A stretch of 5,832 nt of DNA, from the IMG/VR virus record IMGVR_UViG_2534681772_000006, positions 1 through 5,832 of that record; one strand, given 5' to 3'. This stretch comes from a virus. Lineage: Duplodnaviria; Heunggongvirae; Uroviricota; Caudoviricetes. How positions within the stretch are numbered: position 1 is the stretch's first letter; every line of letters begins with the position of its first letter. This document shows, in pieces, positions 1-5,832 of this stretch. The notes under the pieces are model-generated. The model saw only the letters and a list, made by a program, of their open reading frames with translations, was not told where the DNA came from and did not search any database. Position numbers and translations under genes: made by a program.

Positions 1-2
1 CG

Positions 3-176
3 GAGGTAATACACCGTAAGAGCTGGAAAAACCGGACAGAAGTGGAACTGGCCACACTCACGTGGGTGGACTGGTATAACAATCGACGATTGCTGGAAAG
101 GCTGGGCCATATCCCACCGGCAGAAGCAGAAAAAGCTTATTATGCTTCCATCGGAAACGATGATCTGGCAGCCTGA
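3..176 (+). CDS. IS3-family transposase OrfB (DDE integrase), C-terminal fragment; N-terminus lies upstream of the window
   Basis: Frame 3 translates to [57 protein letters not shown] with stop TGA at 174..176. I recognise this from memory as the C-terminal tail of IS629/IS1203-type OrfB. It is not in the supplied ORF track because it has no start codon in the window. Confidence 0.85.
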
Positions 177-191
177 GTTCACAGATAAAAC

Positions 192-218
192 ACTCTCCAG
201 GAAACCCGGGGCGGTTCA
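192..218 (+). repeat. Right terminal inverted repeat (IRR) of the IS629-like element
   Basis: The reverse complement of 192..218 is TGAACCGCCCCGGGTTTCCTGGAGAGT, which matches 5427..5453 (TGAACCGCCCCGGGAATCCTGGAGACT) at about 23 of 27 positions. Exact inner boundary of the repeat is uncertain. Confidence 0.7.
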
Positions 219-498
219 GAATGTGTTCGTTAAGGAGCGGGATGTTGTTGAATGTAGATGCTGCTTTGGCTAACTCTTTCGGGTCACGAAGCAGGTAGTA
301 AAACTTGTCAGGCTGTAAACCTAGCGATCTGTAATTAGGGATTTCACGCCCATAATAAGGGCAAACGTTAGCCTTACTGATTGGCGTCACTTCGATATGC
401 AAACGCCCATCCTTATCAAAGGAGCGCACCGTTGCCTTGTCGAATGCCAATCCGTGATATCCCCATTGCCAGTCGCCTTTAACTTTGCGTAATGGCAT
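219..498 (-). pseudogene. 5' portion (93 codons) of a phage head-module gene of unknown function, truncated at its 3' end by the IS insertion
   Basis: ATG at 498..496 is preceded by AAAGG about 8 nt upstream. The reading frame runs without a stop across the IS junction at 218/219 and ends only inside IS sequence at 58, so the last ~53 codons of the 146-aa track ORF are IS-derived. The native part is [93 protein letters not shown]. Its position after portal and MuF suggests a scaffold, protease or other head-assembly protein; I cannot place the family with confidence. Confidence 0.6.
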
Positions 499-521
499 GC
501 TTTTACCTTTCGGCAGGCAAT

Positions 522-541
522 AAAAAAGCCGCAGTAGCGGC
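522..541 (-). terminator. Candidate rho-independent terminator downstream of the MuF-like gene
   Basis: On the minus strand: GCCGC-TACT-GCGGC (5-bp all-GC stem, 4-nt loop; plus coordinates 541..528) immediately followed by TTTTTT (527..522). It lies about 90 nt after the MuF stop at 633 and 23 nt before the next start codon at 498. Confidence 0.45.
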
Positions 542-632
542 CATTATTTCCTCTTGGACATAGCTATTTTCAGTAGTGCAATCATTAAGCAACCAAAAAT
601 CAACACTAATCCCAGAGACCATAAAACCTCAA

Positions 633-1451
633 TCATTTTCTATCTATCCCAGGGATAACAGGAGACCACGTACAACGGCAGTTGATAGCCTCTCCCGGCA
701 GCACCCATTCACCATCAAGATACAGCCCTTTATCGAGGTCGAACTCTTTACCGTCAGATTTCACATGGGATGTCCTTGGCTGCTTCCCGGCGTGTGAGTG
801 ACGCCAGATTCCTTTGGTGATGCCTAACTTCTTCTGCCGTTCAGACTGAATTACCGCTGTAGCTTTGTTGTTCTGATCGCGTGCGATCGTCTCAGCGCGT
901 CTGCGTGTAATGCCATATCGCTTAACCAGTTCATCAGTGAGATAGCCAAGGTCACGACCACGGCTGACAGACTGCATGACTATCGTCTCAACCTGTGTGT
1001 GATAGTGTTCAGGTATGGATTTAATCAGGTTGACGTTCTCGTTAACGACAGCCTGCATCACGTTCTTAAGCTCGTCATTCATTGTGAACTTAACGGTAAA
1101 TCCGCCAGCCTTTAACGCTGAGTGTAACGAAACGTCGGTGTTGCGCAGTGTCTTATCAACGAAGCGATCAGCCAGTTTCTTAGCCAGTTCATTGAATTTA
1201 TGCTCCCACTGCTTGCCTAGTCTGGACAATCTGCGCTTTAACTCATTCGCGGGACTGGAATCCATCGCCATGTTGTTTTTGTATGCGCCCTCAAGCCAGT
1301 ATCGGTATGACTTATCCATCTCCCTAACCAGTTTGAGAAGCTCAGAGCGATACCACTCATGAACTCCGGCATTAGCTCTGACTGGACGAAGGGTTTTCCG
1401 GGTCTTCGAATCCTTCTTCGACGGACTCGTTTTCGTGCTCTTCTTCGTCAT
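633..1451 (-). CDS. Phage head morphogenesis protein, MuF-like / SPP1 gp7 family (minor head protein)
   Basis: 272 aa. The C-terminal region carries the signature I associate with Mu F-like proteins: [18 protein letters not shown] ... [25 protein letters not shown] ... [10 protein letters not shown]. It sits immediately after the portal gene, as in SPP1-like head modules. The start is uncertain: the ATG at 1451 overlaps the portal 3' end by 80 nt, and the next in-frame ATG is at 1319. Confidence 0.8.
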
Positions 1452-4427: not shown

Positions 4428-4914
4428 TACCAAGCTCCTTCAGTTTCTCTTCAAGTAACTCTTCTGACATATCAGCATAACGTACCGGCCCACCGTTAGC
4501 GCCAGTAATTTCAGTCGAGGTTTGCTGTTTAAATGCCTGCACATTGATGTGATCGCCAATCAATTTCAATGCGGCCGCAGCGCCCTTGGCATCGAATCCG
4601 TAAATCGTGCGCCCCTGCTCATCGGTTATCTCTTCGCCACGGCGATCAGTAATTGGCTCCACTTCCTGCATGCAGCGCTCATGAAGTTTTACGGCTTGGC
4701 GAAGAACGTAATCAGCATCAACCTGTACTCGCTCAAGGCGCTCTCGGTTTAGTTCTTCAATACGCTGCAAAATGTCATCATTTGCCATCATCCTCGCACC
4801 TTGATTGCGGGATGACTTCTCGCTGTATCCGGCCCTAATGGCCGCCTGAGTGGCGTTGAGGTCTTTAATGAACTCGCGGGCAAACAGCTCTTGTTTGTCG
4901 GTGAGCTTTGCCAT
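4381..4914 (-). CDS. terS: Phage terminase small subunit
   Basis: 177 aa. The N-terminus MAKLTDKQELFAREFIKDLNATQAAIRAGYS matches the helix-turn-helix signature of the Terminase_2-type small subunit. GGAG (4926..4923) lies 8 nt upstream of the ATG at 4914. The 3' end overlaps the terL start by 47 nt, a common terS/terL arrangement. Confidence 0.85.
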   Translation of the reverse strand: MAKLTDKQELFAREFIKDLNATQAAIRAGYSEKSSRNQGARMMANDDILQRIEELNRERLERVQVDADYVLRQAVKLHERCMQEVEPITDRRGEEITDEQGRTIYGFDAKGAAAALKLIGDHINVQAFKQQTSTEITGANGGPVRYADMSEELLEEKLKELGNGRRSNQLESKRSDL

Positions 4915-5019
4915 TATTTGTGCTCCGTTTATCCGTTAAAAGGGATATCAGTTAAGTTATCCCGTGCAGGGTATAAGCCATTATCAAAGCCACTCTGTAG
5001 GGAATGGCTTTTGTAATAA

Positions 5020-5400
5020 CTACTGTTCGCTTAGCTTCTGCTTCAGCAAGTAACCTTCGAGCATCCAGATTTTGTTTACAGCATTTTGCCGGGCAATCTT
5101 CCGACCAATTTCTGCATCAAAGTTTTCCGGGCTTGCACAGGCACTCTCTCCGGTGACGGTGAAGCCATTCTTCAGCACCAGTACGCAGAAAGTGAGCAAC
5201 TTCAATGGTGATAAATCACGATCGCCTTCTTCTGGTTTTTCCCTGCCACAATATTCGTTGCTGGAAATGGCACCATTACGTCCATCATAAGCAGTAAAGT
5301 AATGCTCGCTTTTAATCACGTCTTCGATGTGCTGCGGAGTGATTCTCGGAGCGGTTTTGCCTTTCTCAACGATTTCTTTTTCGATTTGCTGGTCGTTCAT
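5020..5400 (-). CDS. Gp49-like phage protein (N4 Gp49 / Sf6 gene 66 family), function unknown
   Basis: 126 aa. The motif LLTFCVLVLKNGFTVTGESACASPENFDAEIGRKIARQNAVNKIWMLEGYLL is, from memory, characteristic of the Gp49/gene-66 family, which commonly sits just upstream of terminase genes in enterobacterial prophages. AGGG lies about 9 nt upstream of the ATG at 5400. It has no HNH motifs. Confidence 0.6.
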   Translation of the reverse strand: MNDQQIEKEIVEKGKTAPRITPQHIEDVIKSEHYFTAYDGRNGAISSNEYCGREKPEEGDRDLSPLKLLTFCVLVLKNGFTVTGESACASPENFDAEIGRKIARQNAVNKIWMLEGYLLKQKLSEQ

Positions 5401-5426
5401 AATTATGACCCTGTGGAGTGGTTGCT

Positions 5427-5453
5427 TGAACCGCCCCGGGAATCCTGGAGACT
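5427..5453 (+). repeat. Left terminal inverted repeat (IRL) of the IS629-like element
   Basis: TGAACCGCCCCGGGAATCCTGGAGACT is the imperfect inverted repeat of the IRR at 192..218. Confidence 0.7.
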
Positions 5454-5480
5454 AAACTTCCTGAGAAAGAGGTAAACAGG

Positions 5481-5807
5481 ATGACTAAAAATACTCGTTT
5501 TTCCCCCGAAGTCCGTCAGAGGGCGATTCGTATGGTTCTGGAAAGTCAGGGCGAATATGACTCACAGTGGGCGGCAATTTGTTCCATTGCCCCAAAGATT
5601 GACTGTACACCGGAGACTCTGCGTGTCTGGGTACGCCAGCATGAGCGGGATACCGGAGGCGGTGATGGCGGGCTCACCACCGCTGAACGTCAGCGTCTGA
5701 AAGAGCTGGAACGTGAAAATCGTGAACTGCGCCGCAGTAACGATATCCTTCGCCAGGCTTCCGCTTATTTTGCGAAGGCGGAGTTCGACCGCCTCTGGAA
5801 AAAATGA
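5481..5807 (+). CDS. IS3-family transposase OrfA (helix-turn-helix / leucine-zipper DNA-binding protein), IS629-like
   Basis: 108 aa: [108 protein letters not shown]. It is near-identical to IS629/IS1203 OrfA as I remember it. GAGG lies 8 nt upstream of the ATG. Stop is TGA at 5805..5807. Confidence 0.9.
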
Positions 5808-5832
5808 TGCCACTGCTGGATAAGCTGCGTGA
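5804..5832 (+). CDS. IS3-family transposase OrfB, N-terminal fragment; continues beyond the window
   Basis: ATG ATG CCA CTG CTG GAT AAG CTG CGT translates to MMPLLDKLR in the -1 frame relative to orfA. The first ATG (5804..5806) overlaps the orfA stop in an ATGA arrangement immediately after an A6 run (5799..5804), consistent with translational coupling or a -1 frameshift in IS3-family elements. Confidence 0.7.

Follow-up and report, generated by a model that had tools for sequence, protein, structure and literature searches.

Probable independent insertions of an IS629/IS1203-type element on either side of the packaging genes of a TW10590-type prophage in Escherichia coli DEC13B

The stretch of DNA considered here, hereafter the window, comprises positions 1 to 5,832 of the IMG/VR virus record IMGVR_UViG_2534681772_000006, and holds a block of tailed-phage packaging and head genes between the ends of two directly oriented copies of an IS629/IS1203-type insertion sequence (IS) of the IS3 family. 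The window is the exact reverse complement of an entire contig, AIHG01000047.1 (5832 bp; locus L003), of the assembly GCA_000250335.2 of Escherichia coli DEC13B. Exact-protein matches for the products of terS (EHX54182.1) and MuF (EHX54185.1) lead to accessions named Escherichia coli DEC13B, and the exact portal protein is read on only four contigs, AIHG01000047.1 among them. An earlier note on this DNA had described IS ends at …218 and 5427… in direct orientation around a 5.2-kb segment, and had proposed that the pair is the likely reason the prophage is degraded, that recombination can also mobilise the segment as a composite unit, and that the arrangement marks a hotspot of structural variation. 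The two IS ends proved exact to the base. As for their origin, the arrangement is, in our judgement, probably the outcome of two recent and independent simple insertions of a 1310-bp element into a prophage of DEC13B of the type found in TW10590 (NZ_CP035850.1).

At the left-hand side of the window, the right end of the IS (1..218, + strand) matches the last 218 nt of full-length copies of the element; it contains the C-terminal 57 codons of OrfB, the DDE transposase (3-173, + strand, with the stop codon at 174-176), which are all that the window holds of this gene, and the right terminal inverted repeat (about 194-218, + strand), ending ...GGGGCGGTTCA. At the right-hand side, the left end of the IS (5427..5832, + strand) matches the first 406 nt of the full-length copies, and carries the left terminal inverted repeat (5427-5451, + strand), a complete OrfA of 108 aa with an HTH_Tnp_1 domain (PF01527; 5481-5807, + strand), and the frameshift region with the ALIL frameshift pseudoknot (5762-5832; RF01497, 64.6 bits in Rfam), the latter cut by the contig end. 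On the + strand the 14-mer TGAACCGCCCCGGG opens the right-hand piece at 5427, and 218 is the last position of its reverse complement, where the first 218 nt of the window close with ...CCCGGGGCGGTTCA; the two terminal inverted repeats match at 14/14 of the first 14 nt and at 23/25 of the first 25, and, being imperfect repeats with a 5'-TG start and a CA-3' end, show a trait of the IS3 family. Compared with full-length 1310-bp copies, L023 of the same genome among them, 403/406 positions agree at 5427-5832 and 213-218/218 at 1-218, a match far beyond chance. The same two pieces agree at 395/406 and 211/218 positions, respectively, with a copy from O157:H7 that PGAP annotates as 'IS3-like element IS1203 family', and judged by this match 'IS629-like' is a fair name for the element.

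The interior between the IS ends (219-5426, 5208 bp) has all its genes on the - strand, and its gene content is as the earlier note had listed it, Pfam hits confirming the named genes. Reading in the direction of transcription, these are a Gp49-family protein gene (5020..5400, 126 aa, PF13876), terS (4381..4914, 177 aa, PF03592), terL (2907..4427, 506 aa, PF03237 and PF17289; annotated as terL in TW10590), the portal gene (1372..2907, 511 aa, PF06381 Phage_portal_3), and a gene for a MuF / SPP1 gp7-family head morphogenesis protein (633..1319, PF04233), annotated with 228 aa in a frame that is open to 1451. The truncated gene of the earlier note is a DUF2213/Pa193_gp24 head gene, of which the first 280 nt (93 codons and 1 nt) lie at 219..498 and which is cut by the IS at 218|219; the domain, PF09979, was identified on the intact homologue. 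The terS, terL, portal and head morphogenesis genes stand in the canonical order of tailed phages, collinear with the TW10590 prophage, and the second IS begins 26 bp upstream of the Gp49 start codon. The truncated DUF2213 frame reads on into the IS as an open reading frame of 146 aa (58-498), and exact look-up of this fusion product returned no record. As an observation on annotation, the portal gene (13154-14689 in the TW10590 locus L001) bears the PGAP name 'anti-CBASS protein Acb1 family protein' in TW10590 and STEC299, whereas near-identical portal proteins elsewhere are named 'DUF1073 domain-containing protein', after the family PF06381/DUF1073; the Acb1 name looks like annotation spill-over, not function.

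Evidence on the origin of the arrangement comes from relatives free of the IS. Both TW10590 and PNRR01000040.1 are identical to the interior at 5206/5208 positions, with the same gene order and no IS at either site; of the two substitutions (window 4967 and 5035, C versus T at both), the first lies between terS and Gp49 and the second close to the 3' end of the Gp49 gene. In both relatives the left insertion point reads uninterrupted as ...GCAGTAACCG|GAATGTG within the DUF2213 gene, which in TW10590 is intact (408 aa, L001 11054-12280), and the right insertion point reads uninterrupted as ...GGTTGCT|TGATTAGG in the 239 bp that separate Gp49 from a small lysis-region gene. Given this continuous sequence, the truncated gene was cut by the IS itself and not by prior decay, and nothing is missing inside the IS bracket. 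The TW10590 prophage (NZ_CP035850.1 2749643-2778853) is lambdoid, with repressor/cro/cII, replication genes, the nin region, Q, holin and endolysin, followed by the late genes in the order Gp49, terS, terL, portal, MuF, DUF2213, cement protein and major capsid, and, at the tail end, E217-like neck, sheath and tube genes and a tape-measure-region SLT protein; it is a combination of lambda-like early and lysis genes with an E217/Pa193-like head and contractile-tail module. In TW10590 and PNRR01000040.1 alike the surrounding prophage is apparently intact, complete and collinear. For the inner flanks, therefore, comparison with IS-free relatives gave the collinearity that the earlier note had itself associated with independent simple insertions, and its view of the IS pair as the likely reason the prophage is degraded is not supported.

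The bracketed appearance of the window has a simple source in the assembly. The contig breaks off within an IS copy at either end, the element being a multicopy repeat through which the assembler could not pass, and a window that consists of a whole contig ending in repeat copies therefore looks like an IS-'bracketed' unit. That the IS ends had been wrongly appended, so that the phage DNA is not in fact adjacent to an IS, is the most improbable of the readings we weighed: the contig does end in a multicopy repeat, and two of the three positions at which the right-hand copy differs from every full copy fall in the last 30 nt of the contig, but a different assembler gives both junctions exactly, and each junction falls exactly at an IS terminus. 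The independent assembly, from Logan (SRR096910), has an identical interior, with IS sequence of 29-30 nt (about k-1) on either side; since it reproduces both junctions, they are real in the reads and are branch points of the graph. A separate observation concerns the position of the left-hand break. The 57-aa OrfB fragment, about 218 nt from the IS right end, stands at the start or end of 36 contigs in unrelated assemblies (loci L037-L056), and this shared contig break (window 1-176) suggests that assembly graphs branch repeatedly at one place inside IS629-type elements, probably the place at which co-resident subtypes diverge.

We searched for traces of recombination or mobility in 5426 complete E. 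coli genomes. In 20 records the match extends over at least 62% of the window; the block stands in a phage context in every one of them, and both sites are free of IS629-type elements. In the complete genomes neither window junction was found, nor was the block outside a phage context, and for a synthetic deletion product with a single IS (left flank, IS and right flank) no record covers the left flank together with the IS. The phage collection yielded no IS-flanked unit, its matches reaching only the Gp49 end of the block. The 'composite unit' and the 'hotspot' thus find no counterpart in these genomes. Like a composite transposon, the segment of 5.2 kb has two directly oriented copies of one IS around it; unlike one, the DEC13B segment sits in its native phage context, ends inside a gene and gives no evidence of movement as a unit, and where a composite transposon would be expected in more than one genomic context, the 20 records all show phage context without the IS copies of the window. 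The likeness is a resemblance only. Were the terS-terL-portal-MuF block with its IS a mobile or excised unit, whether as a composite transposon that has changed its place or, with one IS, as a circle or a tandem amplification, it would be an IS-mobilised phage packaging module, and the topology of the contig, with the IS right end on one side and the left end on the other, is what a circle would also give. We nevertheless regard this as very improbable: the block ends in codon 94 of DUF2213 in a native phage context that is kept base for base, no non-phage context was met in the genomes or in the phage collection, and IS3-family elements transpose as single copies, by a copy-out/paste-in route. 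Furthermore, the inner flanks GAA... and ...GCT differ and form no duplication, which shows no more than that the two ends do not belong to opposite sides of a single simple insertion.

As to whether the pair could recombine, as the earlier note had it, direct repeats of 1.3 kb are substrates for RecA-dependent deletion or excision, and a pair 5.2 kb apart in direct orientation could in principle lose terS through MuF in this way; that much of the claim stands as established knowledge. Nothing in the data shows that it has happened, and the pair is best described as a latent substrate on which homologous recombination could delete the 5.2-kb block, with no such event observed or documented. 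In two of the 20 records, both from other strains, unrelated elements of the IS21 family lie in the same packaging module, i.e. IS100 in the portal gene (H8, STEC299) and ISEc12 in terL (H15, IGC_RcoliRes_1.1); insertion of IS elements into the packaging module is not specific to IS629.

Full-length relatives of the element, retrieved by exact look-up of OrfA, are 1310 bp long and encode OrfA (108 aa) and OrfB (295 aa, with HTH_21 and rve domains), and the full copies in DEC13B itself and in sister genomes are exactly 1310 bp. The DEC13B copy (L023), which has the 4-bp target-site duplication CCGG, sits within a backbone contig of 1.03 Mb; copies in the sister assemblies have the duplications GGCA, GTGC, GTCC and TAC, and those in PSS-11 have GCT and GTT. 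The full copies in DEC13B and the sister assemblies, with OrfA and OrfB intact, show an active element that makes duplications of 3-4 bp. The exact OrfA is listed in 283 index blocks, including contigs of sister strains (the DEC13 series) and of enterotoxin plasmids. Several of the plasmid copies (L008-L011, L017, L024 and L025; enterotoxin/colonisation-factor plasmids, e.g. LR882998.1) are 3580-3582 bp long and not 1310 bp, being lengthened by a group II intron that encodes a 507-aa RVT_1 and GIIM protein and lies in OrfB, where it separates HTH_21 from rve.

A close parallel is that of the IS629/IS1203 insertions in lambdoid prophages of O157:H7 and other pathogenic E. coli. The two have in common the terminal repeats (TGAACCGCCCCGG...), the ALIL pseudoknot, 3-4 bp duplications at other copies and a strong bias towards prophage targets, and, if the window copies are like the full-length ones, would also share the length of 1310 bp and the programmed frameshift between OrfA and OrfB; interrupted phage structural genes are common there, and one O157 example hits terL. 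In O157, 62% of the IS629 copies are reported to lie in prophages, with target-site duplications of 3-4 bp (PMC3271280). Differences are seen as well. The DEC13B variant is about 95% identical to the O157 copy over the full length (1245/1310 for a related full copy against the O157:H7 IS1203-family copy), and the window ends are 97% identical; the variant of the window is that of the sister (DEC13-series) assemblies and the enterotoxin plasmids; and the two insertion sites of the window were found in no other genome searched.

In other prophages, namely those of PSS-11, 2013C-4081 and OkiPb01684, IS629-family elements have inserted repeatedly in the region from the lysis cassette to the packaging genes, which fits the published prophage bias of IS629 (PMC3271280). 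PSS-11 (NZ_AP027694.1) carries two direct IS629-type copies (L016, 911-2220 and 3001-4310) that are 780 bp apart (2090 bp from start to start), each with its own 3-bp duplication, GCT and GTT. The second of them, that with GTT, lies in a spacer homologous to the right-hand site of the window, 91 bp away from it; the stretch that separates the lysis cassette from Gp49 is hit recurrently. In 2013C-4081 an IS629-family copy lies in a Rha gene, and in OkiPb01684 a lysis gene is the site of the copy, whose right flank is rearranged. For OkiPb01684 and O111:H8-type strains, an insertion at the window's own site upstream of Gp49 had been considered and was rejected, the copies being in a lysis or Rha gene, about 0.6-1.1 kb off. 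The prophage of OkiPb01684 is P22-like, with a Gp49 protein identical to that of TW10590 (WP_000999674.1), and its IS3-family copy (L057 4604-5913) joins a lysis-gene fragment to phage replication genes in the opposite orientation, apparently through an inversion or deletion mediated by the IS. In the sister strain of contig AIHI01000004.1 (GCA_000250375.2), another lambdoid prophage has two direct copies of the same IS 5295 bp apart (L005 5947-7256 and 11242-...; L006 652-1961 and 5947-7256), one in a lysozyme gene with the 4-bp duplication GTCC and the other between ninE and ninB with no duplication (AAC|GCT), the latter being a signature of IS-associated rearrangement.

These last two cases, namely the same IS variant without a duplication at one prophage site of a sister assembly (the L006 copy at 5947) and the IS of the same family that joins a lysis-gene fragment to replication genes in OkiPb01684, lend some weight, as do the multiple IS copies in DEC13B, to the main rival of independent insertion. 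According to this rival the IS pair has already rearranged the prophage, be it by deletion of adjacent DNA, by inversion or by recombination with an IS copy far away, so that beyond one or both copies the expected phage DNA does not follow and the prophage is structurally degraded, as the earlier note had proposed. We consider it unlikely. The inner flanks are perfectly collinear with the IS-free relatives, and the 5426 complete genomes hold no deletion product. Moreover, exact look-up located in DEC13B three proteins identical to those of the TW10590 prophage, i.e. the major capsid protein (EHX54424.1, ECDEC13B_4783), a 125-aa protein (EHX54427.1, ECDEC13B_4780) and a 115-aa protein (EHX54429.1). 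Their genes are absent from the window contig and lie on one or more other DEC13B contigs with near-consecutive locus tags, and their retention argues against a large deletion downstream of DUF2213. These proteins, and the sole truncated gene of the window, which was cut by the insertion itself, lend no support to the IS pair as the reason for a degraded prophage. The predicted 306-aa C-terminal remnant of DUF2213, starting at the first ATG past the junction, was found on one 1883-bp ENA contig.

Independent insertion, which we favour, would have proceeded as follows. An IS629-type element resident in the lineage in many copies would have made two separate copy-out/paste-in insertions into an otherwise intact prophage. 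One copy lies in codon 94 of the DUF2213 (Pa193_gp24-like) head gene, a conserved gene that it splits; the other, between the lysis cassette and the packaging genes, lies in the intergenic DNA 26 bp upstream of Gp49 and leaves the coding sequences intact. Both copies are antisense to the late operon, to which the one on the Gp49 side would add 1.3 kb. Each copy is expected to be of full length, with its own 3-4 bp duplication and collinear outer flanks. For the left-hand copy the duplication would be GAA or GAAT and the outer flank ...CAGCAGTAACCGGAA(T), giving a junction ...GGGTCTGCAGCAGTAACCGGAA(T)|TGAACCGCCCCGGG; for the right-hand copy the duplication would be GCT or TGCT and the outer flank (T)GCTTGATTAGGATG..., giving a junction CCCGGGGCGGTTCA|(T)GCTTGATTAGGATGTC.

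Several points weigh against this account. The record ends within the IS on both sides, so that only 218 nt of the left-hand copy and 406 nt of the right-hand copy are visible and the full length of both is an assumption. The outer junctions lie on other DEC13B contigs, and we infer the duplication at each copy and the outer collinearity. The assembly graph would look alike for a chromosomal IS-segment-IS order and for the segment with one IS as a circle or tandem. Finally, the right-hand copy has three private differences from all the full copies examined, at IS positions 33, 378 and 405 (window 5459, 5804 and 5831); the two copies may not be of the same subtype, the right-hand one being different or mosaic, or the contig end may be noisy or a mixed consensus. 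At IS position 378 the difference gives the frameshift motif AAAAAAT, as in the PSS-11 copies, versus AAAAAGT in other full copies; AAAAAAT as the mark of a defective copy was considered and rejected, as the PSS-11 copies share it.

Insertions of IS elements into prophages, seen at the ends of draft contigs, are ordinary and already known in kind, and a short contig that ends in IS sequence should be taken for an assembly breakpoint, not for a mobile unit. Recombination between the two copies, were it to be shown, would add one more case to the IS-driven decay of prophages already described for O157. For DEC13B, the split of DUF2213 probably abolishes head assembly, so that no capsids would be formed, and the prophage would be defective through gene disruption and not through recombination. 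The finding is thus of value for annotation at the level of the strain: the TW10590-type prophage of DEC13B is probably defective, an IS629-type element having split one of its head genes.

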